Assembly (NCBI GenBank): GCA_038044405.1 | Contig: JBBTAC010000002.1 | Span: 1 to 55,433, forward strand | Direction of reading: 5' to 3' | DNA length: 55,433 nt | Origin: Nanobdellota archaeon | Lineage (GTDB): Archaea; Nanobdellota; Nanobdellia; Pacearchaeales; GW2011-AR1 | Shown here: positions 17,901 to 47,619 of the stretch, piece by piece | Position numbering within the stretch: position 1 is the first letter of the stretch | Layout of the letters: the number at the start of each line of letters is the position of its first letter | The notes under the pieces: generated by a model | Seen by the model: only the letters and a program-made list of their open reading frames with translations | Database searches by the model: none | Told to the model about the DNA's origin: nothing | Program-made: the position numbers and the translations under genes

Positions 17901-18949
17901 AGCCAGACATTGCCTTAGTAAAATATAAAGTCCTTAGTGGAGGAGGCATGTTAAAGATTGTTAATGGCTCAGTCTCCTTAGCATTGAAGAAATTAGGATA
18001 TAATGAATTTGAAATTAAGAACATTATAGAATACATTGATAAAAATGATACTATTGAAGGAGCTCCTTATCTAAGAGATGAACATCTCGATGTATTTGAT
18101 TGTGCGTTCAAACCTGCAAATGGGAAGAGGGCAATCAATTATAAGGCGCATATTGATATGATGGCTGTTTCTCAGCCATTTATTTCAGGAGCAATTAGCA
18201 AGACAGTTAATATGCCTGAAGATTCTACAGTAGAAGATATTGCCAAGGCCTATATTTATGCTTGGGAAAGTAAATTAAAAGCAGTTGCTATTTATAGAGA
18301 GAACAGCAAGAGAAGTCAGCCATTAAATACAAGAAAAACAGAAGGCGAAGTTGTTAAAAAAGTTGAGAAGATAATTGTCGCAAAGAGAATTCCTCTTCCT
18401 CAAACAAGAAAATCTATTACACATAAATTCGATATAGGAGGACATAGCGGATATTTAACAGTTGGACTATATGACGATGGAAAACCAGGAGAAGTATTTG
18501 TTACAATGGCAAAGCAAGGCTCAACAATAAGAGGCTTAATGGACGCTTGGGCTCGCTCTATATCTTTAAACTTGCAATATAGTGCGACTATAAACGAGCT
18601 ATTTGGAAAATTCAGGCATCAAAAGTTTGAACCTGCTGGATTTGTTAAAAATGAAGGTGGAGGGTCAATTGATGAAAAAGTAAAGCCTATCAGAACAGCA
18701 TCATCAATAGTAGACTATGTTGCTCAATTCATGTTGAATAATTTTGGAATTAGTGCCGGAAAAGTTCAAGTAGACATTGAACCAGATTTAGAAATTAAAG
18801 ATGCAATTGATGAACAAGCACAACTTAATGAGTTTTCTAATGAGGGATTAATCTGCTCATTCTGCGGCGGCACTGCAAAAAGAATTGGAAATTGTGCAAT
18901 TTATTGCACGAGCTGTAATCAAACCCAAAGAAGCGGATGTGGAGAATAA
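14963..18949 (+). CDS. nrdJ: Class II (B12-dependent) ribonucleotide reductase NrdJ, interrupted by an in-frame intein
   Basis: N-terminal FWSPLAIKVVASKYFWGD. The active-site loop SNP|C...|CSEYMFLDDTACNLASINL is split by the intein. C-terminal Cys cluster CSFCGG...CAIYCTSCNQ. Confidence 0.95.
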   Translation: MAEENVMNGNGYENGNSNGYEDKRIFVQRLDSIKRSMQIERYFTQENKSPFIYGINGKPLNWISEDVNVTDDRGKLIFTQPSVRRPDFWSPLAIKVVASKYFWGDQAKNERENTVEKLIGRVSRFIGRQSLKQGYFNEKESSILQDEISAICLNQLCVFNSPVWFNAGIQEYHQEAGGVSAYVWDETTKGIIKSDKAMDRPQCSACFILSAEDNMDSIMAVQTAEANLFKAGSGTGTNRSNLRSSREKLTGGGRASGPVSFMRGYDAYASVIKSGGKTRRAAKMEILNIDHPDVMDFINAKQTEEKKAWALIEQGYGGGMNGDAYGSVCFQNCNMSVRVSDEFMKAIKNDGEWQTKFVKSNGVCETFKARDILDKIAEGTWICGDPGIQCDTIINKYHTCKNSGKINASNPCVTGDTRILIEGGKWVRIDSILDKESNILTNTGIIQESKINGSFKTGRKPVYKLTTKSGYEMKLTSDHKVFTINRGFVPACELTKDDYILLPAYNVSEVVEPEDKNFYQMLGVYLGDGHGGMNSESIQLTMNKEEEIPILERFAEYVATNYERITHKNSPATVRITPTSCKYSITNTFVINKFKEFVDLSLLGHEKYISNRIFSLGLGEQKYILQGLFSSDGTVANYGEKSQYVSLDSTSLQLLKDVQLILLGFGIKSKLYKNRRAGKDKAFLPDGRGGLKEYNVKEMHSLRISRSGRIKFERLIGFMPESKKGERLRKMNEQIGVYNDKPIDAVESLNYIGEEEVYDLTEPLTHSFVANGITVHNCSEYMFLDDTACNLASINLMKFRTENGGFDAEGYKKVVRYFITAMDIFVDGASYPTEKIAERSHIFRTLGLGYANLGALLMSLGLPYNSDSGRAVAAAITAIMCGEAYKASAELARLVGPFPGFKDNRESMLNVIRMHREHVKEIDVEKIPVDLRDLVNIAWDCWSEALELGEKYGFRNAQTTVLAPTGTIAFMMDCDTTGIEPDIALVKYKVLSGGGMLKIVNGSVSLALKKLGYNEFEIKNIIEYIDKNDTIEGAPYLRDEHLDVFDCAFKPANGKRAINYKAHIDMMAVSQPFISGAISKTVNMPEDSTVEDIAKAYIYAWESKLKAVAIYRENSKRSQPLNTRKTEGEVVKKVEKIIVAKRIPLPQTRKSITHKFDIGGHSGYLTVGLYDDGKPGEVFVTMAKQGSTIRGLMDAWARSISLNLQYSATINELFGKFRHQKFEPAGFVKNEGGGSIDEKVKPIRTASSIVDYVAQFMLNNFGISAGKVQVDIEPDLEIKDAIDEQAQLNEFSNEGLICSFCGGTAKRIGNCAIYCTSCNQTQRSGCGE
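16196..17293 (+). mobile_element. Intein (366 aa) with LAGLIDADG homing-endonuclease domain, inserted at the NPC active-site cysteine of NrdJ
   Basis: Begins CVTGDTRIL (block A, Cys1). Has TSDHKVF (block B TxxH). Two LAGLIDADG motifs: LGVYLGDGHG and LQGLFSSDGTV. Ends FVANGITVHN, followed by the +1 Cys of CSEYMF. Both boundaries are in frame with the host ORF. Confidence 0.9.
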
Positions 18950-33177: not shown

Positions 33178-33972
33178 ATGCTTTTAAATTTAAACTTTTT
33201 GAGGTTATTAATGAACAGAAGCCCTCTTATGCTTGGAGTAGAAAGAAAGATTGGCGAGAATATCGAATCTTTCTTAACAGAAGCCTATGTAAATGAATGG
33301 AAGTCTAGTCTTTATATTGGTAGGAAATTAAAAGTTCATCCTGCAACTATAAGGCGTTGGCTCATGAAATCAGGTGTTAACTTAAGAAATACCAAAGATT
33401 ATTTATCTAGAAGAATTAAAAAACCTCTTAACAACACCTTAAAGTATTATTATCATGTAAGAAAACCTGTTTCAGAAATTGCAAGCGAAAGAAAAGTTTG
33501 TGCAAAAACAGTTTATCGTTGGATGGAAAGTGCAGATATAGAAAGGAGAAAGGGATCCAATGCGTATCTAGATAACGGATTTACTAGACCTTCAAATAAA
33601 GAATTAGAAGTGTTGCTAAGTCAAAAAAATAAAAAAGAAATTTCCTCTATTTACGATATTAATCCGCATACTTTAAGAAGATGGATACAACAAGCAGGAT
33701 TGCATCAATTTAAAAAAAGCAGATATGATTCTAAAAATTTAAGAAGAAATATGGTTAAAGATCTGCTTGAAAGATTAGAAAAAGATTTTAGTCAATTAAG
33801 GTATGAAGATTTCAGTACTAAGAAAGAAGATGGAAATTCTTATAGAGGCCTGCTTAATTGGTACATTGCGCACCATCGTTGCAGATTTTCTGGTGTAAAG
33901 AGGCAAATGAAAGAAGATTATTCAGAAAATGACAAAATGTCTAATTCCATATTACCTTCTGAATTTTCTTAG
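33178..33972 (+). CDS. Protein with three tandem helix-turn-helix-like repeats, unknown function
   Basis: Three spaced repeats of a recognition-helix-like motif: HPATIRRWLMKSG, AKTVYRWMESADI, PHTLRRWIQQAGL. The start is uncertain (33178, 33211 or 33229). The 3' end overlaps the convergent aldolase gene by 32 nt. Confidence 0.6.
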   Translation: MLLNLNFLRLLMNRSPLMLGVERKIGENIESFLTEAYVNEWKSSLYIGRKLKVHPATIRRWLMKSGVNLRNTKDYLSRRIKKPLNNTLKYYYHVRKPVSEIASERKVCAKTVYRWMESADIERRKGSNAYLDNGFTRPSNKELEVLLSQKNKKEISSIYDINPHTLRRWIQQAGLHQFKKSRYDSKNLRRNMVKDLLERLEKDFSQLRYEDFSTKKEDGNSYRGLLNWYIAHHRCRFSGVKRQMKEDYSENDKMSNSILPSEFS

Positions 33973-34699
33973 TAATTTCTCCTGGATTCTTGCTTTGCCA
34001 GATATTTCTTCCCACAGCGAGTCCTGTTGCTCCAGTTTTCATTATCTCTTCAGTTTCTTTTAAAAAGTCACTTTCACCTTTTTTAGTCCCTCCAGCAATT
34101 ACAACTTTTGTTTTACCCGCAGTCTTTACAGTCCATTTCAAATCATCCACATTTCCGCCATATTTTAATTTTACAATATCAGCACCCAATTCCAATCCAA
34201 CTCGAGCAGCGTAAGCCATTATTTCTCTAGATGTGTCAGTTTTTATTGACTTTCCGCGAGGATATACCCATGCAATAACAGGAATGCCTTTCGAATGCGC
34301 CTCTCTTTCTATAATCTCAAATTCCTGCATCATTATACTTTCATATTCACTTCCAATGTAAATTGTATATCCCACAGCACTTGCGCCCAATTTCAGAGCT
34401 TCTTGAACAGTACAAAGCTGTCTAGCAAGAGCCTCGCCCTTGTATAAATTTGTCTTTCCATTTAATTTTATAATCAGAGGTATTTTACTAGATCTTATTT
34501 CAGAATTATATTTTTCAGCAATTCCCTTCTGGAAGACAAGCCCTTGAAATTTCCCATTTTTTGCAATATCTATAATATAACTAGGATTAGCGTTTTTATC
34601 ATTAAAATCAGTACTCGGTCCATGCTCTAATCCTTGATCATATGCAAGATAAAGCGCCTTTCCTCTTTTCAAAATCTTATCGATTTTTATTTTCATCAT
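33941..34699 (-). CDS. fbaB: Class I fructose-bisphosphate aldolase, archaeal DhnA/FbaB type (a related DeoC/LacD-family aldolase cannot be excluded)
   Basis: LAYDQGLEHGP, GADIVKLKY (Schiff-base lysine context), GATGLAVGRNIWQ. Confidence 0.78.
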   Translation of the reverse strand: MMKIKIDKILKRGKALYLAYDQGLEHGPSTDFNDKNANPSYIIDIAKNGKFQGLVFQKGIAEKYNSEIRSSKIPLIIKLNGKTNLYKGEALARQLCTVQEALKLGASAVGYTIYIGSEYESIMMQEFEIIEREAHSKGIPVIAWVYPRGKSIKTDTSREIMAYAARVGLELGADIVKLKYGGNVDDLKWTVKTAGKTKVVIAGGTKKGESDFLKETEEIMKTGATGLAVGRNIWQSKNPGEITKKIQKVIWN

Positions 34700-34757: not shown

Positions 34758-35099
34758 ATGAAAAAATATGTAGAAAAGAGGCCCTGGGGAAAATTTGAGA
34801 GATTTACAGATAACGAAAAATCAACTGTAAAAATAATAACAGTAAACCCTGGACAAAAATTATCTTTACAATATCATAATTATAGACAAGAATTCTGGAA
34901 ATTTCTAGACAATCCAGCTAAAGTCACACTAGGAAAAAGAATAATTAAAGTTAAAAAAGATCAAGAAATAATAGTTCCAAAAAAAACTCTTCACAGAGTT
35001 GAGGCATTAGATAAGCCAGTAAGATTTTTAGAAATTGCAATCGGCAAATTTAGAGAAAATGACATCGTTAGAATCGAAGACAATTATGGGCGAGTTTAA
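34758..35099 (+). CDS. Cupin-type mannose-6-phosphate isomerase (type II PMI cupin domain)
   Basis: RPWGKFERF...VKIITVNPGQKLSLQYHNYRQEFW...HRVE. Confidence 0.72.
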   Translation: MKKYVEKRPWGKFERFTDNEKSTVKIITVNPGQKLSLQYHNYRQEFWKFLDNPAKVTLGKRIIKVKKDQEIIVPKKTLHRVEALDKPVRFLEIAIGKFRENDIVRIEDNYGRV

Positions 35100-35105
35100 A
35101 ATTAA

Positions 35106-36482
35106 TTATTTCTCAGCAATTCTCAAAATCTCTTTCAACTTAGATTTCATTGTAACTTTATCAACAGCTTCTAAATTAATTCTCAATAAAGGCTCTGTAT
35201 TGCTTTTCCTAACGCTAAACCAGTAATCATCAAACTGAATTCTCAAGCCATCAAAATTATCTATTTTTCGCGGTTTTTTATTTTTATAATATTTTTTAAT
35301 TTTCTCAACAATGTCTTCACCATCTTTTAATTTTATACTCATCTCTTCAGATTGAGAGTATTTATTAAATTCAGCAATCAAATCAGAAAATTTAATTCCA
35401 TTTTTCTTGGATTGAGAATAAATCTCTAGAACAAGCAAAGAACTAATCAATGCAGAATCAGCGTAATAATTATCCCTATAATAATAATGCCCAGAATGTT
35501 CAACTCCCAATAATGCATTGTTCTTATACATAGACTCCTTCATAAAAGCATGGCCGACTTTAGCACGCACAGATTTTCCATAATATTTTGATATGGTTTC
35601 GTTAATTATTTTACTGCAAGCAGAAGTATAGACAATATTTTCTTTTCTTTTCTTTTCTTGCAAAAGATATTTTGCCAATAAAGCACCTATAAAAGAGGTG
35701 CTAACAAGTTGACCTTTTTCGTCGACAAATGCAACTCTATCCATATCGCCGTCGAAAGCAATTCCAAAATCCGCTTTATCTTTTAAAACCATCTTTCTTA
35801 AAGACTTCATGTTATCTTTTAGAATAGGATTTGGCACATGATTTGGAAATTTTCCATCTAATTTAAAGTATAAGGGCAAAATGCGAATATCTAGGCCTTT
35901 GTAAATAAAAGGAACAAGTCTTCCAGCCATACCATTTCCAGCATCTACAGCTATTTTTAAATTTCCAATTTTACCTGGGTTAACGAAAGATAAAATATGT
36001 TTTTTATAATTTTTTAAGACGTCTCTTTTAGAAATTTCGCCTCTAATTTTTATGTTTGAAAAATAATCTTTTTCAATAAATTTTTTTATTTTATCTAATC
36101 CATTATTCATGTCAATAGGTCTTGCATTAGCCTTAACAATCTTGATCCCATTATATTCTGCAGGATTATGTGAAGCAGTTATCATGATTCCTGGAGTTTT
36201 ATAAAATGCACTCGCAAAATATAAAGCAGGAGTATCAATTAACCCTATATCCATAACATTGATTCCAGAATCAACAAACCCTTTAGCCAACGCATTAAAC
36301 AAAAGATTAGAAGATAATCTCATATCTCTTCCAATAATTATTTTCTTGCATTTTAAAAATTTAGATATCGCCCTCCCAGTTTTATAAGCAAAACTATCAT
36401 CTAACTCCTGGCCATAAACCCCTCTAATGTCGTTCATTCTAAAAATATTTTCAAACATATTGCCTCTTTCCCGATTTAGCAA
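35106..36482 (-). CDS. Phosphomannomutase/phosphoglucomutase
   Basis: Active-site serine loop ITASHNPAEYNGIK. Mg loop GIAFDGDMDR. The true start is probably the internal MFENIF (about 36458). Confidence 0.9.
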   Translation of the reverse strand: MLNRERGNMFENIFRMNDIRGVYGQELDDSFAYKTGRAISKFLKCKKIIIGRDMRLSSNLLFNALAKGFVDSGINVMDIGLIDTPALYFASAFYKTPGIMITASHNPAEYNGIKIVKANARPIDMNNGLDKIKKFIEKDYFSNIKIRGEISKRDVLKNYKKHILSFVNPGKIGNLKIAVDAGNGMAGRLVPFIYKGLDIRILPLYFKLDGKFPNHVPNPILKDNMKSLRKMVLKDKADFGIAFDGDMDRVAFVDEKGQLVSTSFIGALLAKYLLQEKKRKENIVYTSACSKIINETISKYYGKSVRAKVGHAFMKESMYKNNALLGVEHSGHYYYRDNYYADSALISSLLVLEIYSQSKKNGIKFSDLIAEFNKYSQSEEMSIKLKDGEDIVEKIKKYYKNKKPRKIDNFDGLRIQFDDYWFSVRKSNTEPLLRINLEAVDKVTMKSKLKEILRIAEK

Positions 36483-36544: not shown

Positions 36545-38746
36545 ATGCAAAAAGACGAGCCAGTAATTCTATATATGGCTACATATCCACCGCGTGAATG
36601 CGGAATAGCAACATTCACAAAAGATATTAGCGATGCTATAGACAGAAGATTCTTTCCATCAATAAAAACAAGAATTCTGGCAATGAATAATAACGGTACA
36701 AACATCTATAATTATCCAAAAAGGGTAATGTTCCAGATTAGCGATACAGAAATATCAAATTATTTAGAAATAGCTAATAAAATAAATAAATCCAAAGAGA
36801 TAAAGTTGATAAATATCCAGCATGAATTTGGAATATTTGGAGGAGAATTTGGAGAATATTTAATTCCCTTTCTAGAAGTTTTAAAGAAACCAGTCGTAAT
36901 AACTCTCCATAGTCTTATTCCATTTCCAAATGAAAAATTAAAAAACGTAGTGCAAGAAATATCTAAAAGAGTTAATGCCCTAATTGTAATGACTAAAAAA
37001 GGAGTTGACATTCTTCGAGAACATTACGGAATAGTTAACGGCAAACCAAAAGTATATGTTATTCCCCATGGAATTCCAAATGTAACCTTTGAATCACAGC
37101 AAAAAGAAAAGAAGAATCTTGGCTTTGAAAACAATACGATTTTGCTGACATTTGGAATGATGGGCCCTGGAAAGGGTTATGAACATGTTATAGAATCTCT
37201 TCCAGAAATTGTAAAGAGCTATCCAAATTTACTTTACTTAATTGTAGGTGAAACTCATCCAATGGTAAGAAAAAGAGAAGGAGAACAATATAGAAACTCT
37301 TTAGATGCCAGAATAAAAAGATTAAAGCTGCAAAAGCACGTTAAATTTTATAATAAGTATGTTACGCAGTCTGAAATAATAAGTTACATTAAAGCCTCAG
37401 ATATTTACTTATGTACGCCAGACAATCCAAATCAAATAACTTCGGGCACATTAGCTTATGCAATGGGCAGCGGAAGAACAGTAATAGCAACGCCATTTAT
37501 TCACGCAAAAGATATTGTTACAGAAAATCGCGGTCGTCTAGTAGAATTCAAAAATTCAGAATCAATAAAGAACGCTTTATCAGAATTATTATCCATAAAA
37601 GAAAAGAGAAAAGATATGGAGCGCAATTCTTATTATTACACCCGTCACATGACCTGGCCAAACGTAGCAATGGCTTATGGCCGAGTATTTAAAGAAATTC
37701 TAAAAGAACAGGCAGTAGATATAAAAGAATTGCCAAAGATAAACATGCAGCATTTAATGAGGCTCACAGATAAATTCGGTATAATCCAATTCTCAGAACA
37801 AACCAATCCCGATAAAGCATCAGGTTACACTTTAGATGATAATGCCCGTGCGTTGCTAGTATCAGCAATGCATTATGAAAGATTTAATGAATATAAACAG
37901 CTAAAATTAATAAAAACTTATTTAGATTATATAAATTTTGTAAAAGATAAGGATGGAAAGCTATATAATTTTGTTGATAAATACAAAATGATAAACGGCG
38001 ATTGGAGTGAAGATGCACATGGAAGAGCATTATGGGCTTTAGGTTATTTAGCTTCGCTAGACAAGATTCCAAAAGATTTAAGGAATAAAGCAGACAATTT
38101 ATTCTTAGAGACTTTATCAGTAGCTTCCATTATGCGTTCTCCAAGAGCAATAGCATTTACAATATCAGGCCTATATTATTATAATCAAAAAAAGAAATCA
38201 GATTATATTAAAAATAATATAAAGAAACTTGCAAATATACTAATTTCACTCTATGATCATAATTCTTCTACAAAATGGCAATGGTTTGAACCATTTCTTA
38301 CATATTCAAATAGCAAGCTCCCAGAAGCCTTGCTTTATGCCTACCAGTTGACAAATGAAGAGAATTATCTCGACAAAGCAGTAAAAACTCTTGATTTTTT
38401 AATTTCAAAAACATTCGAAAAAGATATTTTTGTTCCAATAGGGCAAAGAGGATGGTATGAAAAAGATAAAGAGCGCGCATATTTTGACCAGCAGCCAATA
38501 GAGGCAGGCTACACAGTTCAAACTCTTATAGAGGCTCACAAAATAACAAAAAATGAAAAGTATAAGGATTATGCAATAAAGTCATTTGAATGGTTCTTAG
38601 GAAAAAATATGCTGCGGCAAACAATCTATAACGAGAAAACAGGCGGCTGTCATGACGGTTTAGGTGAAAATGCAATCAATCTTAATCAAGGCGCAGAATC
38701 CACACTTTCATATCTAATGGCGAGATTGTCTTTGATAGAACTTTAA
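36545..38746 (+). CDS. GT4-family glycosyltransferase fused to a C-terminal ~340-aa (alpha/alpha)-barrel-like domain
   Basis: The N-terminal ~390 aa has a GT-B/GT4 layout (ECGIATFTKD..., GETHP..., TSGTLAYAMGSGRTVIATPF). The C-terminal half has helical-repeat motifs DDNARALLV and HGRALWALGY. Confidence 0.78.
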   Translation: MQKDEPVILYMATYPPRECGIATFTKDISDAIDRRFFPSIKTRILAMNNNGTNIYNYPKRVMFQISDTEISNYLEIANKINKSKEIKLINIQHEFGIFGGEFGEYLIPFLEVLKKPVVITLHSLIPFPNEKLKNVVQEISKRVNALIVMTKKGVDILREHYGIVNGKPKVYVIPHGIPNVTFESQQKEKKNLGFENNTILLTFGMMGPGKGYEHVIESLPEIVKSYPNLLYLIVGETHPMVRKREGEQYRNSLDARIKRLKLQKHVKFYNKYVTQSEIISYIKASDIYLCTPDNPNQITSGTLAYAMGSGRTVIATPFIHAKDIVTENRGRLVEFKNSESIKNALSELLSIKEKRKDMERNSYYYTRHMTWPNVAMAYGRVFKEILKEQAVDIKELPKINMQHLMRLTDKFGIIQFSEQTNPDKASGYTLDDNARALLVSAMHYERFNEYKQLKLIKTYLDYINFVKDKDGKLYNFVDKYKMINGDWSEDAHGRALWALGYLASLDKIPKDLRNKADNLFLETLSVASIMRSPRAIAFTISGLYYYNQKKKSDYIKNNIKKLANILISLYDHNSSTKWQWFEPFLTYSNSKLPEALLYAYQLTNEENYLDKAVKTLDFLISKTFEKDIFVPIGQRGWYEKDKERAYFDQQPIEAGYTVQTLIEAHKITKNEKYKDYAIKSFEWFLGKNMLRQTIYNEKTGGCHDGLGENAINLNQGAESTLSYLMARLSLIEL

Positions 38747-39128: not shown

Positions 39129-40235
39129 ATGAATCAAATAGAAGAGGCATATGAACAAGCTATAAAAGTTCTAGAAAAATGCGCAACAAACCATGGTTTT
39201 CATGCAGCACATCCGGGCTATCAAGGAATCTGGGCAAGAGACTCAAATATAACTTCTTTAGGCGCTTCTCTTCTGGGGGATAAATTTAAAGAAGAATTTA
39301 AGAGTTCATTAATTATGCTGGCAAAGGGCCAGTCAGAAAAAGGCCAGATTCCAAACGCAGTTCTATGTCATGAAAAGCCAATAAAAATAGATTACAAATC
39401 AATTGACTCAACTTTATGGTTTTTAATCGGACATTATATTTTCAAACAAAGATATAACGATTCTTCTTTAATAAATAAATATAAAAAAAATATAGAAAAA
39501 GCATTAACATGGTTATCTTATCAAGATATGGGCGAGGACTCAATGCTAGAACAGCTTCCAACAACAGACTGGCAAGATGCCTTTCCACATCGTTACGGGC
39601 ACACAATAAATACTCAAGCACTTTACTATAAAGTTTTACAATCCACAAATCAAAAAGAAAAAGCAAGAAAACTAAAAGAACAAACAAATAATAATGAAGA
39701 TAACAAACTTTGGAATGGGTCTTTTTATCTTCCTTGGCGTTGGAAAAATCATAGAAAATATCAAGAAAAAGGAGAATGGTTCGATTCTCTAGGAAATTTA
39801 TTATCTATTATTTTTGAGCTTGCAGATGATCAAAAATCAAACAAAATTCTAGAGTATATTAAAAAAAATAATATAAGCAAGCCATATCCAGTAAAAGCAA
39901 TTTATCCGCCAATAACAAAAGATTCAAAAGATTGGCAGCCATATTTCGAAGACTGCGGAGCCAAAACTCCTTATAATTATCTTAATGCAGGAATCTGGAC
40001 ATTTATCGGAGGATTTTATATTTTAGCATTGATAAAACAAGGAAATTTTAAAGAGGCAGAGCATCAATTAGAAAAGTTAGCAGAAGCAAATTTACAATCT
40101 GGTTTTGCAGAATGGCTTCATGGTCAAACAGGAAAAATAGGCACATCTTCAAGTAAAGAAGGTAATCAGGCATGGAATGCCGGAATGTATATTTTAGCTT
40201 ATCAATCAATAAAAGAAAAGAAATGTTTAATTTAG
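39129..40235 (+). CDS. (alpha/alpha)6-barrel glycoside hydrolase, GDE_C / GH100-like (amylo-alpha-1,6-glucosidase / neutral invertase superfamily)
   Basis: GIWARDSNITSLGA, TTDWQD, and YLNAGIWTFIGGFY-type helical hairpins. The exact family is not resolvable by eye. Confidence 0.68.
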   Translation: MNQIEEAYEQAIKVLEKCATNHGFHAAHPGYQGIWARDSNITSLGASLLGDKFKEEFKSSLIMLAKGQSEKGQIPNAVLCHEKPIKIDYKSIDSTLWFLIGHYIFKQRYNDSSLINKYKKNIEKALTWLSYQDMGEDSMLEQLPTTDWQDAFPHRYGHTINTQALYYKVLQSTNQKEKARKLKEQTNNNEDNKLWNGSFYLPWRWKNHRKYQEKGEWFDSLGNLLSIIFELADDQKSNKILEYIKKNNISKPYPVKAIYPPITKDSKDWQPYFEDCGAKTPYNYLNAGIWTFIGGFYILALIKQGNFKEAEHQLEKLAEANLQSGFAEWLHGQTGKIGTSSSKEGNQAWNAGMYILAYQSIKEKKCLI

Positions 40236-40287: not shown

Positions 40288-40485
40288 ATGAATAATAAAT
40301 ATCACTACGATGCAGAATCAGATTCGCTTTTTATATACTTGGAGGAAGGGGAAGAAGAAAGTTTTGAGGAAATTATACCTGGTATTAATATAGAGTTTGA
40401 TAAAAAAGGAAAGGTAATTGGAATAGAGGTGCTTAAAGCTTCACGCTTTAAAGAAAAATTAAAAGACAAAATAATTGGGCATTAA
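40288..40485 (+). CDS. DUF2283-like small protein
   Basis: YDAESDSLFIYL...KGKVIGIEVLKAS pattern. 65 aa. Confidence 0.6.
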   Translation: MNNKYHYDAESDSLFIYLEEGEEESFEEIIPGINIEFDKKGKVIGIEVLKASRFKEKLKDKIIGH

Positions 40486-40493
40486 TTCAATAA

Positions 40494-41633
40494 TTATTCT
40501 CTCAATCCAAACTTCTCAATAATAATATCCGCCGCCTTCTTAGATACGACCCAATAATCAAAATTAGCAACAGCATGTTTCCTAGCTTCTTCTCCCATTT
40601 TATTGCGCAATTCAGCGTCTGTTAACAATTTCAATGTATATTCAGCAAGTTCATCTATATTTGCTCTGTAAGCAAATACTTTAGGTTCGTCAAATTTTAG
40701 TATCTTCTCTTCTGAAAAACCCATCCAAGGATAAACCCATTCTTGATTTAAAATTACTTTATCAGCAACATTAGCTAGAAAGCCCGTTTTTCCATGAACA
40801 ATAGTTTCCTTAGGCCCCATTGCATTTATTGAAATAACAGGTTTACCGCATGACATTGCCTCAACTTGAATCATCCCGAATCCCTCTAATCTAGAAGGAG
40901 CGGCATAAATATCGCAAGCATTTAAAACATAAGGCATGAAATCATTTGAAAATACGTCGTCTATAAAAATTACTTTATCTTGAATACCAAGTTCCTTAAT
41001 AATTTTGTCTTCTTCCATATGCCATTCAGAAGCATTATCAGAAGGCCAGCTTTTGCAAATATATTTCCAATTCTTGAATTTTTCATTTACTTTTGCAAGA
41101 GCTCTAAACATTTCTTGAGCACCTTTGCTCGTAACATCCCCTCCAGCTGTCAAAATCATAAGCTCATCTTTAATTCCAAGCATTTCTCTAATTCCCTTTA
41201 TTTTATCATCCTTTGGCAAAGGTTTGAATAAACCAGTGTCGATCCCAATATGCAACGGAACAAAATTCTTTACATCAACACCATCTCTCTTGTAAGTTTC
41301 TTTAACCCAATCGCTCGTTGTAAATACTAAAGGTAAGTTTTCAATATCTTTATGATAATTAGCAATCCAACCGTCTGCATTAAACCAAGGTACAGGTGTA
41401 ACCCCAAATTTTAATGGGTGTTGTATCAAATGAGGCGCATTTGCCCAATAACCTATTCCAATAGCAACATCTGGCTTTAAATTTTTAAAATAGAATTCTT
41501 TTTGCGTAGAGCCTTCTCTATTACAAGGCAAAACATCATGCCCTTGCTCCAATAAACCTCTATACAGCATATCTCCTTGGATGCTCAAACCGTCTGATTC
41601 AGCAGGATAAGGATAAAGTATTACAGCTTTCAT
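40494..41633 (-). CDS. GT4-family glycosyltransferase
   Basis: E-x7-E region EGFGMIQVEAMSCGKPVI. GT-B layout. Last gene of the overlapping operon. Confidence 0.88.
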   Translation of the reverse strand: MKAVILYPYPAESDGLSIQGDMLYRGLLEQGHDVLPCNREGSTQKEFYFKNLKPDVAIGIGYWANAPHLIQHPLKFGVTPVPWFNADGWIANYHKDIENLPLVFTTSDWVKETYKRDGVDVKNFVPLHIGIDTGLFKPLPKDDKIKGIREMLGIKDELMILTAGGDVTSKGAQEMFRALAKVNEKFKNWKYICKSWPSDNASEWHMEEDKIIKELGIQDKVIFIDDVFSNDFMPYVLNACDIYAAPSRLEGFGMIQVEAMSCGKPVISINAMGPKETIVHGKTGFLANVADKVILNQEWVYPWMGFSEEKILKFDEPKVFAYRANIDELAEYTLKLLTDAELRNKMGEEARKHAVANFDYWVVSKKAADIIIEKFGLRE

Positions 41634-42217
41634 ATTACTCGGACATTAAAAGCCTCAACATTTCCGCTCGATTTAACTTCAAAACTTTCATCATTAAAAC
41701 CATAAACATTTTTTATTAAATATAACTTCTTTGAATGAATGTCTTTTGACAGCTTTATAAATTTATTTGCATTTTTGTCTATACTACAAAAACCCCCAAT
41801 AGAATTTTTTCCTTTATAGGAAAAGTAAAAAATCCCTTTGCATTTTAATTCTTTATTTTCAATCATTTTATTTACAGCTCTATGCACGTCTAAATGTCTA
41901 ATATGCCCATATTCTCCATTCTTGCCGTGAGTATAAACATAACCGTATTCTTCATTCTTTTTCATTGCCTTTATCTTGTTTATTACTTCATCACTATCTA
42001 AATCATGAAATTTTTCATCATCCAAATCAGATATAGAATAATCCGCGTTTAATTCTTTGCAAACTTTAGAAAATTTCGGCATTCTATCTTTATCATCTTT
42101 CCTGCATAAACAGATAATTTCCCATTCACAATCTTTATTTTGAATAATAGTGCCTCCCATCCAAATCGTCTCATCATCAGGATGAGCAACAATAACTAAA
42201 TTTTTTATTTTCTTCAT
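41630..42217 (-). CDS. PIG-L/LmbE-family N-acetylglucosaminyl deacetylase
   Basis: VIVAHPDDETIWMGG signature, with a later H..H (GHIRHLDVH). Confidence 0.85.
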   Translation of the reverse strand: MKKIKNLVIVAHPDDETIWMGGTIIQNKDCEWEIICLCRKDDKDRMPKFSKVCKELNADYSISDLDDEKFHDLDSDEVINKIKAMKKNEEYGYVYTHGKNGEYGHIRHLDVHRAVNKMIENKELKCKGIFYFSYKGKNSIGGFCSIDKNANKFIKLSKDIHSKKLYLIKNVYGFNDESFEVKSSGNVEAFNVRVI

Positions 42218-42906
42218 AATTTACTAGCAGCTTCTTTATCAATTATAAATGTGACGTCCTTATGCTTTTTTAATATACTTGCAGGAACTTTCTCGTAAAT
42301 TTTACCCTGAACAGATTTAGCAATAGCATCAGCCTTATGTTTACCATTAGCTAACAAAATAATTTTCTTTGCACGCATAATTGTAGCAATTCCAACTGTC
42401 AAAGCATACTTTCCAACTTTATTGTCTTTCAAAGTCATTTCACTCAATTTTATTTTTCTTGTTTCGCTCTTAAATGAAGAGCCAGGTTCATTAAATCCAA
42501 TATGTCCATTTCGTCCAATACCTAAAATCTGCAAGTCAATTCCTCCAGCTTTCTTTATTTCTTTTTCGTAATTCTTGCACTCTAATTCAATATCGTCAGC
42601 TAAACCATTAAGAAAATGTATGTTTTCCTTTTTAATATCAATTTTATTAAATAAATTTTTATCCATAAAAAATCTTAAGCTTTTTTTATTATCCTCACTC
42701 AATAAGTATTCATCTAGATTAAAAATTTTAATTCTAGAGAAATCTATCTTGGAATTTTTATAAGCCAAAACAAGCTCTTTATAAAAAGGAATCATTGTCT
42801 TTCCTGTTGCTAACCCTAAAACTAAATTTCTCTTTTTCTGTTTATATAAAATATCGAGGGCTTCAAGTGCAATTTGCCTTGTATTTTGAACTATTATTAA
42901 TTTCAT
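42214..42906 (-). CDS. nagB: Glucosamine-6-phosphate deaminase
   Basis: LGLATGKTM, FNLDEY, QILGIGRNGHIGFNEPGSS. Confidence 0.88.
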   Translation of the reverse strand: MKLIIVQNTRQIALEALDILYKQKKRNLVLGLATGKTMIPFYKELVLAYKNSKIDFSRIKIFNLDEYLLSEDNKKSLRFFMDKNLFNKIDIKKENIHFLNGLADDIELECKNYEKEIKKAGGIDLQILGIGRNGHIGFNEPGSSFKSETRKIKLSEMTLKDNKVGKYALTVGIATIMRAKKIILLANGKHKADAIAKSVQGKIYEKVPASILKKHKDVTFIIDKEAASKL

Positions 42907-43985
42907 TAGAAATACTCCATTTGCTTGAAGATTTCATCAAAATCTATTTGTTTGACAGCAGTTATACTATCTGCTCCTCCATAATATATAAGTAAACTCT
43001 TTTCATCCAAACTAACAACGGCCCCTGTTGGAAATACAACTCTATTTATGAATCCCCGTGTTTCATAATCCTCTTCAGGTTGAAATAAAGGTTTATTGGT
43101 AGGAGATCTAGCAATAATTTTCTCTGGATTTTTTAAATCCAATAAAACAGCGCCAGCACAATATACGCTTTCTTCACCCTCTTCCCTTACACCGTGATAA
43201 ATTATCAGCCACCCTTTTTTTGTTTTTATTGGAGGTGCTCCACCGCCTATTCTTCTAGAATCCCAAGAATCATGCCTAGGTCTAAGTATACTTCTTTCCC
43301 GACCCCAATAAACTAAATCCGGAGAATAGGAAATCCAAATGCTTGGTCTGCTGAATTTGAAAAATCCTTCTGGTCTATGTAAAGCAACATATTTGCCTTT
43401 TATTTTTTCAGGGAATATTACAGCATCTTTATTCTGTTCTCTAAATATTATTCCATTCCTAGTCCATGAATCTACATTCTTAGATACAGCTAAACAAGTA
43501 GAAACACCTTCATTATTAGAAATACTAACATAAGTCATATAATATTTTCCATCCATCTCTATAATTCTCGGATCTTCAACTCCATAATCACTTTCTCCAG
43601 GAATACCTGTAAAAATAGGCTTATTTCCTATATTCTCTACAGAGAATCCATCACTGCTTAAAATCGCTTTTCTAAAATGAGATATTGTAGGCAGTCTGCA
43701 AGAACCATCTTTCAAATACATTTCACCCCACTTACCCCTTCTAATAATATCTTTTTCATTTATCTTCTGATAATTTGCCTTGTATTCGCTTTCAGAAGAC
43801 ATTACAGGGCATGTTGTCATATTCTTCTGTCCAAAGCCAGCACTTTCAGCAATTCGCACATATAGGGCTATTTTTTTATCTTGCAATCTTACAGCTGCAG
43901 GATTAAATGCTCCTTCTATCTTCCAATCTTTAAAACTCGGTTTAAAATTATCCGGCTTCAATAACAATTTACTTTTAAATCTCAT
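42906..43985 (-). CDS. GH130-family beta-mannoside phosphorylase
   Basis: FNPAAV, GVEDPRIIEMDGKYYMTYV, YGGADSITAV. About 360 aa, with a five-bladed-propeller family pattern. Confidence 0.83.
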   Translation of the reverse strand: MRFKSKLLLKPDNFKPSFKDWKIEGAFNPAAVRLQDKKIALYVRIAESAGFGQKNMTTCPVMSSESEYKANYQKINEKDIIRRGKWGEMYLKDGSCRLPTISHFRKAILSSDGFSVENIGNKPIFTGIPGESDYGVEDPRIIEMDGKYYMTYVSISNNEGVSTCLAVSKNVDSWTRNGIIFREQNKDAVIFPEKIKGKYVALHRPEGFFKFSRPSIWISYSPDLVYWGRERSILRPRHDSWDSRRIGGGAPPIKTKKGWLIIYHGVREEGEESVYCAGAVLLDLKNPEKIIARSPTNKPLFQPEEDYETRGFINRVVFPTGAVVSLDEKSLLIYYGGADSITAVKQIDFDEIFKQMEYF

Positions 43986-44449
43986 CTTTTCAAAAACCTC
44001 TTTTTAAATTTTATATTATAATTTGGCATGGAATCCTCTTGATAAACAGTTAAAGCTTTTAATTTTTTCTTTCCGACATTTACCAATCTATGTGCATATC
44101 CTTCTGGAATTAAAGTTATCTCTCCTTTTTTCAAATTAACTCTTTGCGCTTTATTATTCTTTTGCATAACTAATACACCAGATCCCTCTAAAAGAATATA
44201 AAATTCAGGCGTTCTATTAGAATGCACATGACCGCGAGTCATGTAAAATTCTTCATTTATTGCCCCAGGATTTATTACAGTCAATCCAAGTTGAATTGGA
44301 GACAATTTTTTAATATAAACGTCATAAATTATCGAGTTATCGTCAAAATTAGATTCATCTTTAAATCTATTTTTCATATCTCTCAATTTAATAATTTCTT
44401 TTTTATCATAATTGTTCTCAAATTCCCTTATAGTTTTATTATAATTCAT
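43982..44449 (-). CDS. pgiA: Cupin-type phosphoglucose isomerase (archaeal cPGI-like)
   Basis: MTRGHVHSNRTPEFYILLEG...IPEGYAHRLVNVG matches the cPGI metal-binding cupin motifs. At 155 aa it is shorter than the roughly 190-aa Pyrococcus enzyme, as I recall it. Confidence 0.72.
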   Translation of the reverse strand: MNYNKTIREFENNYDKKEIIKLRDMKNRFKDESNFDDNSIIYDVYIKKLSPIQLGLTVINPGAINEEFYMTRGHVHSNRTPEFYILLEGSGVLVMQKNNKAQRVNLKKGEITLIPEGYAHRLVNVGKKKLKALTVYQEDSMPNYNIKFKKRFLKR

Positions 44450-45276
44450 TTTTTAGCTCCAGCAACTTCAGCATATTCTTCAGTAATATCTTGGGTAAAT
44501 TTTCTCATACCTTCAAGAGTTTTATTATGTCTAAGAAGAGATTTTATAACTGAAAAAGGCATTGTCGCAATATCTGCTCCAGCAAGTGCAACTTCTCTAA
44601 ATTGTCTAGAGTTTCTTATGCTTGCAGCCAATATTTCTGATTTAATTCCTTGTAAATCAAAAATTTTCCTGCACTTTTTAATCAAATCAACACCTGAAAC
44701 AATCCCATTATCATTGAATATTGTCCCAAATCTTTTTATTCCTTCTGCAGGAAAATAATCCTCTTTGCCAAATCGCATTCTTCTCATTTCCCTCAAATAA
44801 TCATCTTCTCTTCCAGCAAAAGGGCTGACTATTTTCGCTCCAGCTTTAGCAGCAAGAAAAGCTTGTTCAGGAGTAAAAATTAAAGTGCAGTTTATAGGGA
44901 TTTTCTTACCAGATAAATATTTTATTGCCTTTATTCCATCTGCTTCATTTGAACAAACATTTTCCAAGCAAGGATCAACAGGTATTTTTATATAAACATT
45001 TTTTGCTATTTTGTTAAATTTTTTATATAAAATTAAACTCTCCTTAATCATTTCCTTAAAATCCGTCCCTACAACCTCTAAACTTACTCTAGCGTTTTTA
45101 GAAACCTTCAAAATATCTTTTATGTAGCTCTCAATATTAATTTTTTTATCTTTTAATTTTAATCTATCAACTTCATTCTTTATTAAACTAGGGTTAGTCG
45201 TAACACCATCTAAAATACCATAACTAGCAACTTCCTTGATTTCATCTAAATTAGCGCTGTCTATAAATATTTTCAT
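44446..45276 (-). CDS. tal: Transaldolase, TalC/FSA short-family type, with insertions
   Basis: MKIFIDSANLDEI...GVTTNPSLI, Schiff-base VYIKIPV, NCTLIF, VSPFAGR, AASIRN. Confidence 0.88.
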   Translation of the reverse strand: MKIFIDSANLDEIKEVASYGILDGVTTNPSLIKNEVDRLKLKDKKINIESYIKDILKVSKNARVSLEVVGTDFKEMIKESLILYKKFNKIAKNVYIKIPVDPCLENVCSNEADGIKAIKYLSGKKIPINCTLIFTPEQAFLAAKAGAKIVSPFAGREDDYLREMRRMRFGKEDYFPAEGIKRFGTIFNDNGIVSGVDLIKKCRKIFDLQGIKSEILAASIRNSRQFREVALAGADIATMPFSVIKSLLRHNKTLEGMRKFTQDITEEYAEVAGAKK

Positions 45277-45378
45277 TTTCTCTTTTTTATATAATAATAA
45301 ATAACTATTTAAAATATGCTAAGTCACTTCAATATTGTAAATAAAAACCATTATAAACATCATTATCCTTTTCAAGAA

Positions 45379-46468: not shown

Positions 46469-46552
46469 CATCAAGATTTGCTGTTCACAAATAGCAAATC
46501 TTGTGTGCTCAAGAACCAAGCAATTAAGAATAGTCTAAAGGTTCTTGACATC
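46469..46552 (+). repeat. Double-hairpin element related to the 3' half of the 5784/28087 repeat
   Basis: CAT-CAAGATTTGCT-(loop)-AGCAAATCTTG (46472-46503), then GCT-CAAGAACC-(loop)-GGTTCTTG-ACAT (46510-46550). The conserved flanks catCAAGA...TCTTG and gctCAAGA...TCTTGacat are the same as in the repeat, with different but complementary inner stems. The second arm overlaps the last codons of pgl. Confidence 0.6.
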
Positions 46553-47224
46553 AGTAAAAACATAGGAATCTTCTATTGAATTAATAAGTTTTGCTGGACA
46601 ATCTGCAATTATCAATTTATTATTCATAAAGTTTTCATAAGCTTCTCTTTTCTCTTCACCAAAGAAAAGAAGCAGTCCACATTTAGATTTCTGCAATAAT
46701 CTTCTAGAAGCCGAAATTCTATCAGAAGGCAGTTTAGGAGATTCTTTCACATTTACAAAAAATTCAGAAGGGTCTTTTACAGACGAATTTGGAAATAAAG
46801 AGCCAACATGCCCATCTTCTCCAGAACTAAGCAATATTATATCATAACAGTCTGAAATTAATTTCAATTCGTTTTTGTATGCTTCTAGTCCTTTATTCAT
46901 AGGCAGATTAAAATAAATATAGGGATGCATGTTATTGCTCAATAAAAGTTTCTGTTTTGTCAAATATTCTAGAAATATATCATAAGCTTGTTTGAAATTT
47001 TTTCCCGGGTCATTACCAATTGTATCATCAATCATAAAGATATGCACTTTATCCCATTTTATATTTTCATTTTTTAAAATATTAAGAACACCAATTATGG
47101 ATCTTCCGCCAGGAATTGCAAGAACAACTCTTTCCTGTATTTTCAGGAGAGAATTTATCTTTTTAGCAATAAGTTGCGCGGCTTTTATTTCAAGTTCTTT
47201 CCTTTTTCCATTAATTATCTTCAT
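46535..47224 (-). CDS. pgl: 6-phosphogluconolactonase
   Basis: [22 protein letters not shown]. Overlaps msrB by 4 nt. Confidence 0.85.
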
Positions 47225-47619
47225 TTTACTTCCTTTTTCTTTTTAAAACCTAAAGCACACGAGTTTATACAATAACGTATACCAGTTGGAGCAGGACCAT
47301 CCTTAAAAACATGTCCTAAATGCCCCCCACATTTCTTGCATATGACTTCGGTTCTTTTCATAAATAAAGAATCATCTTCTTTTAATATAATAGAGTTTTT
47401 TGCAGCAGGACTATCAAAACTTGGCCAGCCAGTTCCGGAATCAAATTTAGTTTTAGAAGAAAATAATTTAGCTCCACAAGCTGCACAAACATACATTCCA
47501 TCTTCTTTATTATGCAAAAGCTTACCCGTAAATGGAAGTTCTGTGCTTTTTTTCCTCAATACTTTAAATTGTTCAGGCGTTAATTTTTTCTTCCATTCCT
47601 CTTCTGTTTTAGCTATCAT
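47221..47619 (-). CDS. msrB: Peptide-methionine (R)-S-oxide reductase
   Basis: Zn CxxC pairs CAACG and [34 protein letters not shown]. Confidence 0.93.

Follow-up and report, generated by a model that had tools for sequence, protein, structure and literature searches.

The stretch of DNA considered here, referred to throughout as the window, comprises 55,433 nt of contig JBBTAC010000002.1 (assembly GCA_038044405.1) from a Nanobdellota archaeon of the Pacearchaeales, the contig originating from the 0.1-µm fraction of groundwater taken at well H41, Hainich. The organism is placed among the DPANN archaea by how its RNA polymerase, NusA, S12 and S7 genes are arranged and by its nearest relatives. 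Within it, six minus-strand open reading frames (ORFs), running from position 45276 to 40494, overlap successively by 4, 4, 1, 4 and 4 nt in the ORF listing and encode, in the direction of transcription, a probable transaldolase (Tal), a cupin-type phosphoglucose isomerase (cPGI), a GH130 glycoside phosphorylase, a glucosamine-6-phosphate (GlcN-6-P) deaminase (NagB), a PIG-L/LmbE deacetylase and a GT4 glycosyltransferase. These overlaps and family assignments, along with those of a nearby phosphomannose isomerase (PMI)-type cupin and a phosphomannomutase (PMM), had been made in a first-pass annotation from the sequence alone, and all of them hold: the coordinates recur in the ORF listing, the junctions were read directly and the families were confirmed with Pfam and NCBIfam models. 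The same annotation had interpreted the six genes as a salvage route for beta-1,4-mannosyl-N-acetylglucosamine (GlcNAc) from N-glycan cores. The results presented below point elsewhere, with the GH130 enzyme looking like a beta-1,2-mannoside-type phosphorylase, and with the gene set conserved in related archaea differing from the operon as it stands in the window.

Organization of the operon

The junctions between the six ORFs read ATGA, ATGA, TAATG, ATGA and ATGA in gene order, and the ORFs very probably form a single transcript. Adjoining genes often overlap in this genome, 12 of the window's 32 same-strand neighbour pairs doing so, and the MsrB (SelR) and 6-phosphogluconolactonase (Pgl) genes at 46535-47619 share a 4-nt ATGA overlap despite having no obvious common pathway. 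The arrangement of the operon thus argues for co-transcription rather than for a shared pathway, and conservation in relatives is the better test of shared function.

At its 5′ end, tal is separated from the divergent rpiB–rpe pair by a 39-bp, A/T-rich spacer (45277..45315), in which TATA-like boxes could be read for both directions, TTTATATAA upstream of rpiB and TTTAAATA upstream of tal; in a genome of ~30 % GC, these constitute weak evidence of promoters. At the opposite end, a T-rich tract (40402..40493, minus strand) follows the GT4 gene, with TTTTGTCTTTTAATTTTTCTTT on the sense strand within ~50 nt of the stop codon and a T6 run at 40407-40402. T6 runs occur only twice within the 4.8-kb operon, and the tract is likely to be an archaeal oligo-T termination zone. 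A sequence scan of the operon proteins detected neither signal peptides nor transmembrane segments. An antisense ORF of 178 aa (44222-44758, plus strand) spans the tal/cPGI junction; with its low-complexity, hydrophobic translation, it gives the impression of a shadow ORF, produced by the A/T-rich coding strand, rather than of a gene.

The GH130 phosphorylase

The third gene (42906..43985, minus strand) encodes a protein of 359 aa that scores 182.5 bits against PF04041 (cut-off 26 bits), and so carries the five-bladed beta-propeller domain of GH130; its AlphaFold model has a pLDDT of 91, and all 35 top Foldseek matches are GH130 structures. Alignment with Uhgb_MS pairs R44, E137, D138, K186, R204 and R245 of the window protein with R47, E136, D137, K184, R202 and R242, respectively. 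Because the catalytic aspartate (D138) and the basic phosphate-binding residues are retained, and a signal peptide is lacking, the enzyme is predicted to be a phosphorylase that releases mannose 1-phosphate (Man-1-P), as the first-pass annotation had supposed. Assignment as a GH130_3 hydrolase was considered and rejected, as the basic phosphate-binding residues are kept and no more than 99 bits are reached with the beta-1,2-mannosidase model.

The linkage cleaved by GH130 enzymes is predicted by a pair of +1-subsite residues, namely Y/R for beta-1,4, E/K for beta-1,2 and E/R for beta-1,3 (PMC7660257; PMC12814180), the E/K rule resting on a limited set of validated enzymes. In the window protein the pair is E137/K186, accompanied by R44 as the equivalent of R47, and it therefore bears the beta-1,2 signature; the Y/R pair of GH130_2 (Y103/R150 in UhgbMP) is absent. 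An alignment of 83 GH130 sequences from related loci, encompassing DPANN orthologs, paralogs and bacterial homologs, reveals the glutamate and R44 to be invariant, the lysine to be replaced solely in L030:4606 (by arginine, giving E/R), and Y/R to occur in none.

Amongst PDB sequences, the best matches are all beta-1,2 enzymes, namely Teth514_1788 (197.7 bits), Lin0857 (185.9 bits, at full length, residues 5-351), Teth514_1789 (181 bits) and Uhgb_MS (173.4 bits), ahead of the beta-1,4 enzymes of GH130_2, RaMP2 and UhgbMP (117-118 bits), and of the MGPs of GH130_1 (49-65 bits). UhgbMP itself, at 117.4 bits, ranks ninth among distinct PDB sequences, behind five beta-1,2 enzymes, TM1225 and RaMP2. 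The Foldseek ranking is headed by Lin0857 and Uhgb_MS (TM-scores of 0.85-0.89, the best being Lin0857 at 0.85-0.87), followed by the Teth514 enzymes, with UhgbMP at 0.72/0.80. The two top NCBIfam models are both for beta-1,2-mannobiose phosphorylases, and both remain under their cut-offs (NF050092, 278.3 versus 550 bits; NF052550, 228.5 versus 450 bits), marking the protein, on profile scores, as a relative rather than an equivalog. Its orthologs are labelled beta-1,2-mannobiose/oligomannan phosphorylase by JGI. In a neighbour-joining tree built with four beta-1,2 references, the DPANN sequences group in a clade of their own, divided in two, which lies next to GH130_4 and GH130_6 and within neither. 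Judged by how PDB sequences and structures rank against it, by its signature residues and by this tree, the GH130 of the window looks like a beta-1,2-mannoside-type phosphorylase with a possibly novel aglycone, rather than a Man-beta-1,4-GlcNAc enzyme of N-glycan cores. The specificity for beta-1,4-mannosyl-GlcNAc proposed in the first-pass annotation is thereby contradicted, in the very way that had been named beforehand as telling against it.

The full-length alignment with Lin0857, and the TM-score to that structure, indicate an N-terminal insertion of the length of a GH130_4 lid, modelled with a pLDDT of 59-84. Such a lid consists of a loop of ~48 aa, with an Arg that touches the +1/+2 sugars and a Val/Met that blocks +3. 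The Arg position falls at K85-W86 in the window protein, HMMER and MAFFT differing by one residue as to which of these replaces it; the Arg-Val/Met pair as a whole has given way to K/R-W within the subgroup of the window protein and to G-N in many of the other DPANN orthologs. The L2 loop (203-216) is of GH130_4-like length. As a lid limits Lin0857 and Uhgb_MS, the presumably lid-covered pocket suggests a substrate with a degree of polymerization (DP) of about 2-3.

The E/R protein mentioned above is a GH130 paralog from a Woesearchaeota locus (L030:4606-5367), flanked by two GT4 fragments, for which the published rule would predict beta-1,3 specificity. The module of many relatives includes a further GH130 paralog, longer than the window protein and 38-45 % identical to it (group B), which bears the E/K pair and is absent from the window; examples are L008:15930-17042, L010:4499-5611, L014:12089-13186, L043:5922-7082 and L053:9378-10538, and in some loci (L047, L049, L050, L052 and L055-L057) it is the sole GH130. 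A hidden paralog of GH130_2 type was also considered and rejected, none being present in the window, and none with Y/R in the related loci, where every sequence other than L030:4606 displays E/K.

The deaminase and the deacetylase

The fourth gene (42214..42906, minus strand; 230 aa) encodes a genuine NagB, scoring 93.5 bits against Glucosamine_iso and 249.9 bits against TIGR00502, above the cut-off of 236.9 bits, compared with only 89 bits for the Pgl model. The initial call of a GlcN-6-P deaminase is thus upheld, and a mis-called 6-phosphogluconolactonase beside Tal and PGI can be set aside on these scores and because a distinct paralog, 46535-47224, is the 6-phosphogluconolactonase (Pgl 107 bits, NagB 29 bits).

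The fifth gene (41630..42217, minus strand) encodes a PIG-L/LmbE zinc de-N-acetylase of 195 aa (PF02585, 52.8 bits). The metal motif of LmbE proteins is HXD1D2 + H, and characterised members all act on GlcNAc-type substrates (PMC4101496). In the window protein, H12-P-D14-D15 together with H105/H108 is invariant across 29 orthologs, and also in a set of 35 homologs, and the model (pLDDT 94) displays the Rossmann-like LmbE fold. Foldseek assigns a probability of 1.00 to Dac, the diacetylchitobiose deacetylase of Pyrococcus, and to MshB, TT1542, BshB and LnmX alike, with TM-scores of 0.70 for Dac (E = 3e-8, the top match), 0.70 for TT1542, 0.62-0.68 for BshB and ~0.6 for MshB, at identities of 11-19 %; values so nearly equal do not discriminate between these five as relatives. 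Sequence and profile searches against the PDB match characterised members at the motif level only, and the protein belongs to a short, divergent LmbE subfamily. In bacterial proteins of NF002557, a NagB domain (profile positions 56-275) and a PIG-L domain (369-497) are fused, which provides an independent link between deacetylase and deaminase activities.

These results bear on the salvage of N-glycan cores, whereby GH130 would phosphorolyse Man-beta-1,4-GlcNAc, with PIG-L and NagB taking GlcNAc to fructose 6-phosphate, joining the BT1033/UhgbMP route to the Dac chemistry of Thermococcales. The gene content is compatible with this in outline: NagB is genuine and tightly coupled to GH130, and it is Dac that heads the Foldseek matches of the deacetylase, although MshB, BshB and TT1542 are not separated from it. 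Against it stand the E/K pair and the complete absence of Y/R (0/83 aligned sequences), the position of UhgbMP well under the five beta-1,2 enzymes both in sequence score (117 versus 173-198 bits) and in fold, the lack of a GH130_2-type paralog in the window or related loci, and the absence from the window of an endo-beta-N-acetylglucosaminidase, an alpha-mannosidase and a GlcNAc kinase. On the strength of these sequence and model comparisons, the explanation appears very improbable, and close to refuted. The stripping of host N-glycans (host or self N-glycans had been put forward as the obvious substrate of such a route) likewise loses its support once the GH130 is re-assigned to the beta-1,2 type.

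The GT4 glycosyltransferase

The last gene (40494..41633, minus strand; 379 aa) encodes a retaining GT4 glycosyltransferase (Glycos_transf_1, PF00534, 101.2 bits), in which the E-x7-E motif reads EGFGMIQVE. The best solved matches of its ortholog profile are MshA (3c4q, 75.5 bits), B. anthracis BshA (2jjm, 71.7 bits) and the SPS Tll1590 (68.2 bits), in each case across the donor-binding domain only; MshA and BshA are GlcNAc transferases that operate together with LmbE deacetylases. Neither the GT4 nor PIG-L approaches the equivalog cut-offs of the thiol pathways (MshA, 59 versus 462 bits; BshA, 66 versus 274 bits; MshB, 29 versus 224 bits), and a Cys ligase (MshC/BshC) is not among the recurrent neighbours within ~8 kb.

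Conservation across DPANN loci

GH130 orthologs were found by a scan of GTDB species genomes, and the window proteins were mapped onto 62 DPANN loci. Orthologs with 50-67 % identity occur on more than 60 contigs of metagenome-assembled genomes from Woese-, Pace-, Iain- and Nanoarchaeota, with Bacteroidota homologs at 34-38 %. The gene found near GH130 most often is GT4 (34/62 loci), followed by PIG-L (33/62), a GH100-like hydrolase (28/62), NagB (25/62), a fusion of GT4 with an (alpha/alpha)6 domain (21/62) and the PMI cupin (11/62); Tal (6/62) and cPGI (3/62) are seldom present. GH130 and NagB are direct neighbours in that order in 17 loci, mostly overlapping or ≤5 nt apart. PIG-L is adjacent to GT4 in 31 loci, 21 of which display the exact 4-nt overlap, and this pair is kept even where NagB or GH130 have moved. 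The module as a whole persists through inversions and reshuffling (L028, L043, L045, L047-L053, L057 and L061, among others).

Across more than 60 DPANN loci, the unit that is kept is therefore GH130 > NagB plus PIG-L > GT4, usually with the GH100-like hydrolase and the GT4 fusion beside them, and not tal-pgi. Conservation supports the GH130–NagB and PIG-L–GT4 pairs strongly and tal-pgi weakly, the joining of the latter to the operon being peculiar to this lineage. The notion of a six-gene unit consequently survives in part, as the order GH130 > NagB > PIG-L > GT4 is kept in many relatives whilst its first two genes are not. The suggested wiring into the pentose phosphate pathway finds support, with GH130 lying directly beside genes of glycolysis or of that pathway (GAPDH-PGK, FBA-TIM, Tal or Tkt) in ~17 DPANN loci. 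Other recurrent neighbours in relatives are ROK kinases of generic subtype (11 loci), PfkB kinases (12), HAD-IIB phosphatases (6) and MFS transporters (3), all of them absent from the window and from the 10 kb past its right end.

One could also suppose that no single pathway is encoded here, and that genome compaction in a 'sugar island' has merely brought under one transcript Tal, cPGI, GH130, NagB and PIG-L/GT4, each with an independent housekeeping role (pentose phosphate pathway, mannose salvage, amino-sugar balance and envelope glycosylation). The frequency of overlaps in this genome, joining even such unrelated genes as MsrB and Pgl, speaks for this, as do the rarity with which Tal and cPGI are linked to GH130 elsewhere, the many loci in which GH130 stands alone and the mixture of central-carbon genes that makes up the whole 30-53 kb region. 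However, the co-occurrence of GH130, NagB, PIG-L, GT4, the GH100-like hydrolase and the GT4 fusion persists in DPANN lineages far apart from one another, despite numerous rearrangements and inversions of strand, which is hard to explain without a functional link and leaves mere co-transcription unlikely.

The tight coupling of PIG-L to GT4 also affects the role of the deacetylase. This had been placed in a salvage route, with a synthetic role entertained only as a caveat; its tightest tie proves to be with a glycosyltransferase, a pairing otherwise known from biosynthesis. By analogy with such pairs, the GT4 most likely makes an alpha-GlcNAc glycoside that is used by PIG-L. Taken further, the whole module may be biosynthetic or cycling. 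As with MshA/MshB, BshA/BshB and PIG-A/PIG-L, GlcNAc would be transferred from UDP-GlcNAc to an acceptor and then deacetylated to an alpha-GlcN glycoside; NagB would run in the aminating direction (fructose 6-phosphate + NH4+ to GlcN-6-P), a PMM/GlmM-type mutase would feed UDP-GlcNAc synthesis and GH130, either reversed or dependent on GDP-mannose (GDP-Man), would add beta-1,2-mannose, with the GH100-like hydrolase and phosphorolysis by GH130 recycling the product (a compatible solute, carbon buffer, cofactor precursor or glycolipid head group).

This is the main, and a serious, rival to the reading preferred below, although it is somewhat unlikely in itself. The exact PIG-L/GT4 overlap in 21/31 loci, and the integrity of the pair where NagB or GH130 have relocated, favour it, as do MshA and BshA being the best solved relatives of the GT4 profile; yet the GT4 lies far under the MshA and BshA equivalog cut-offs, with the donor domain alone matching. 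Two GT4s are conserved in the module and a HAD-IIB sugar-phosphatase-like gene is near in 6 loci, reminiscent of the SPS/SPP and MshA/MshA2 schemes, but NDP-sugar pyrophosphorylases (GlmU, ManC), GlmS and a Cys ligase (MshC/BshC) are not among the recurrent neighbours. All tested beta-1,2-type GH130 phosphorylases display weak GDP-Man transferase activity, the physiological relevance of which is doubted by its authors (PMC12814180). Finally, the GH130_4-like length of the L2 loop and the absence of a transporter and a secreted hydrolase from the window, and from 10 kb past its right end, accord with synthesis, whilst NagB and GH130 are catabolic in nearly all organisms studied, and the module sits amid genes of glycolysis and the pentose phosphate pathway.

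Two further observations were made amongst the related loci. DPANN-type GH130 genes (43-60 % identical) are found on contigs from bins assigned to Aerophobetes, Thaumarchaeota, Chloroflexi, Omnitrophota and Falkowbacteria (L009, L027, L042, L050 and L068), with L050 carrying the whole module; these are either mis-binned contigs or cases of lateral transfer. In addition, L028, L053 and L061 (e.g. L061:2134-3090) harbour at the module locus a candidate SIS-type bifunctional PGI/PMI, recognized by eye, L061 possessing both this and a cupin PGI. With cPGI being rare, the isomerase step may thus be filled by non-homologous enzymes.

Transaldolase, isomerase and neighbouring genes

The first gene of the operon (44446..45276, minus strand; 276 aa) encodes a Tal/FSA-family enzyme (PF00923, TAL_FSA, 172.6 bits) with an insertion of ~30 aa. 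TIGR00875 matches in two stretches at 176 bits, under its cut-off of 246. The Glu in 'SLEVV' and Phe in 'SPFAGR', read by eye, presumably follow the transaldolase rather than the fructose-6-phosphate aldolase pattern of textbook residues, and the protein is probably a transaldolase. The second gene (43982..44449, minus strand) encodes a short protein of 155 aa in the cupin-type phosphoglucose isomerase family (PF06560, GPI, 65.2 bits versus a cut-off of 20.7), the match spanning only profile positions 48-157 of 182; its motifs GHVH...E and YAHRLVN we take to resemble the cPGI metal site.

Immediately beyond the GT4 gene lies the GH100/GDE_C-like (alpha/alpha)6 glycosidase (39129..40235, plus strand; 368 aa), which scores 65 bits against PF12899, across the C-terminal third only, and 47.9 bits against PF06202. 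A profile of its orthologs recovers InvB and InvA, two alkaline invertases of cyanobacteria (E = 1e-15 to 1e-13), and D150 and E328 are invariant and align with the invertase 'MID' and 'PEY' positions, which we take to be those of the catalytic Asp and Glu. The fusion protein (36545..38746, plus strand; 733 aa) possesses a PimA/PimB-like GT4 in its N-terminal half (PF00534, 71 bits), similar to these mannosyltransferases, and a C-terminal (alpha/alpha)6 domain, the profile of which matches the uncharacterised YPO2471 (7tem, E = 3e-20) and, weakly, GH76 alpha-1,6-mannanases and AGE-family epimerases. A mutase of phosphomannomutase/phosphoglucomutase/GlmM type (35106..36482, minus strand; 458 aa) contains all four PGM_PMM domains and scores 456.6 bits against NF007088 (PMM/PGM) and 388.5 bits against Arch_GlmM, both under the cut-offs. 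It is followed by the stand-alone PMI-type cupin (34758..35099, plus strand; 113 aa; PF01050, 82.4 bits).

All of these genes are embedded in a 23-kb central-carbon island (30248-53287) that also encodes 6PGDH, TIM, a class I FBA (DeoC/LacD family), RpiB, Rpe, 6-phosphogluconolactonase, PGK, GAPDH, transketolase and G6PDH, and thus holds a complete oxidative and non-oxidative pentose phosphate pathway. No phosphofructokinase is found in the window; PfkB kinases adjoin FBA in related Pacearchaeota loci. A protein of 264 aa with a helix–turn–helix domain (33178-33972, plus strand), which could be a local regulator of the island, is convergent with the class I aldolase gene (33941-34699, minus strand), their 3′ ends overlapping by 32 nt.

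Elsewhere in the window, a gene for a class II (B12-type) ribonucleotide reductase (14963-18949; 1328 aa) is split by an intein with a LAGLIDADG homing-endonuclease domain, and a free-standing LAGLIDADG ORF lies just past the right end. A very large ORF (411-4988; 1525 aa in the window and 1661 aa in the source contig), in or beside which the contig end falls, harbours Laminin_G_3 (concanavalin-like lectin) and SdiA-regulated domains, and may serve an episymbiont at its surface or in adhesion.

Comparison with known systems

The nearest described cluster is Teth514_1785-1796 of Thermoanaerobacter sp. X-514, which likewise has cytoplasmic beta-1,2-type GH130 enzymes without signal peptides and a GT4 alongside, and for which an ATP-free supply of alpha-Man-1-P has been proposed (PMC4264767). 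Teth514_1788 and Teth514_1789 are 43-45 % identical to the window GH130 in the catalytic region, but the DPANN enzyme has an insertion of GH130_4 lid length, a lid that theirs lack. Only in the Thermoanaerobacter cluster are a Man-1-P guanylyltransferase, an ABC transporter and a GH5 hydrolase encoded, whilst it lacks NagB, PIG-L, the GH100-like enzyme and pentose phosphate pathway genes (PMC4264767). Lin0857 and Uhgb_MS, the beta-1,2-mannobiose phosphorylases of GH130_4 (PMC12814180), share with the window enzyme a full-length alignment, the fold, the catalytic, phosphate-binding and +1 residues, an N-terminal insertion of lid length and a similar L2 loop length; they differ in identity (35-41 % in the catalytic region), in the lid pair and in genomic context, the window enzyme falling in a separate DPANN clade.

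The Bacteroides BT1033/UhgbMP system shares the logic of phosphorolysis to Man-1-P with the GlcNAc moiety ending at NagB, but its +1 pair is Y/R where E/K is found here, and the resemblance of the enzymes is only 117 bits (TM-score 0.72/0.80). It also employs NagA, a kinase, GH18 and alpha-mannosidases within a polysaccharide utilization locus, none of which is present at this locus. The chitin pathway of Thermococcales (Dac, GlmA, an ADP-dependent kinase and GlmD) similarly places an archaeal LmbE-family deacetylase ahead of a GlcN-6-P deaminase step. Dac, however, is ~270 aa long compared with 195 aa here, with 17 % identity in the fold match and motif-level sequence similarity (E = 5e-4, residues 3-39), and GlmA, the ADP-dependent kinase, GlmD and chitinase are absent from the window; moreover, GlmD of Thermococcales is an SIS-type deaminase unrelated to the classical NagB seen here.

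A GT4 paired with an LmbE-family zinc deacetylase is the feature in common with MshA/MshB (mycothiol), BshA/BshB (bacillithiol) and PIG-A/PIG-L (GPI anchors), the two genes being adjacent and translationally coupled in the present case. The motif numbering of BshB is that of the window PIG-L, H12-x-D14-D15. These systems are set apart by the lack here of a nearby Cys ligase or inositol-phosphate synthase, by the unmatched acceptor-binding domain of the GT4 and by the unusually short deacetylase. Lastly, the mannogen cycle of Leishmania (GT108 MTPs; PMC10913872) displays cytosolic synthesis and phosphorolysis of beta-1,2-mannosides by GH130-fold enzymes as a carbon buffer, with MTP4 being a distant fold match of the window GH130 (TM-score 0.56). 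That family is GT108 and its polymer is of DP 4-40, whereas the lid-like insertion suggests DP 2-3 here, and no reserve of this kind is known from archaea.

Proposed function of the module

The reading that we tentatively prefer, although we judge it to fall a little short of an even chance, is the cytoplasmic turnover of a short, beta-1,2-mannosylated, GlcNAc-containing glycoside, either self-made or scavenged from a host, with Man-1-P and GlcN-6-P both led to fructose 6-phosphate beside the pentose phosphate pathway genes. Gene identities, signature residues, folds and conservation were observed; from them we infer activities, which way the flux runs and what the glycoside is. The functional core would consist of GH130 > NagB, PIG-L > GT4, the GH100-like hydrolase, the GT4-(alpha/alpha)6 fusion, the PMI cupin and PMM, with tal-pgi outside it. 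In the first step, the cytoplasmic GH130 would phosphorolyse a short beta-1,2-linked mannoside (~DP 2-3) to alpha-Man-1-P without ATP, which PMM and the PMI cupin, judging by their families, could convert to fructose 6-phosphate. The LmbE-type zinc deacetylase would strip the acetyl group from the GlcNAc-containing partner and, after phosphorylation or mutase action along a putative route to GlcN-6-P, NagB would yield fructose 6-phosphate and ammonium. Fructose 6-phosphate would then be drained via cPGI, Tal, Tkt and the pentose phosphate pathway, and subsequently lower glycolysis, all of which are encoded alongside. The MshA/BshA-like GT4, together with the second, fused GT4, would most plausibly make the alpha-linked glycoside on which the deacetylase and hydrolases act.

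A number of points weigh against such turnover. Lin0857 and Uhgb_MS bind the +1/+2 sugars with a lid Arg for which the window GH130 has no clear counterpart, such that the aglycone may differ from mannose, and the DPANN enzymes, 41-45 % identical in their catalytic region to the beta-1,2 enzymes that have been characterised, form a separate clade. GH130 occurs without NagB, PIG-L or GT4 in ~40 % of related loci, and hence does not depend on these genes. The presence of two conserved GT4 synthases is also difficult to square with catabolism alone. As the first-pass annotation had noted for the window, there is no kinase, transporter or secreted glycosidase, nor a NagA, either there or within 10 kb past its right end (the left end being the contig end). 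Beta-1,2-mannosides are, to our knowledge, rare in nature, and we know of no source of them for groundwater archaea.

A more far-reaching proposal, distinctly improbable at present, would combine synthesis and turnover. Here, the GT4 and LmbE pair would make an alpha-GlcN glycoside to which the DPANN-specific GH130 clade would reversibly add, and from which it would remove, beta-1,2-mannose (using Man-1-P or GDP-Man). This would amount to an unrecognised cytosolic system of Woese-, Pace- and Nanoarchaeota, serving as a 'mannogen-like' carbon and energy buffer or as a low-molecular-weight cofactor precursor, charged from and discharged into fructose 6-phosphate with no ATP spent on the mannose branch. 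If true, such a glycoside system would be a feature of central metabolism in ultra-small archaea without a described counterpart.

Whilst the enzyme families concerned are all known, what is new is a GH130 clade specific to DPANN in which the lid is altered, a short subfamily of LmbE and the conserved association of the two. In the literature searched on GH130 in DPANN and other archaea, on NagB of Woese- and Pacearchaeota and on glycoside phosphorylases of DPANN, no description of the cluster was found, in keeping with the earlier impression that this gene combination had not been described as a unit. Re-assignment from beta-1,4-mannosyl-GlcNAc to the beta-1,2 type changes the candidate substrates, and two uncharacterised enzyme subfamilies, the lid-diverged GH130 clade of DPANN and the short LmbE deacetylase, now yield clear predictions that can be assayed. 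As DPANN genomes are minimal, a sugar module of six to ten genes that is kept across lineages amid those of glycolysis and the pentose phosphate pathway is probably important to the lifestyle of these archaea. Should GH130 indeed provide Man-1-P without ATP, and NagB fructose 6-phosphate, the module would offer an energy-sparing entry of carbon to organisms that are often assumed to be host-dependent.

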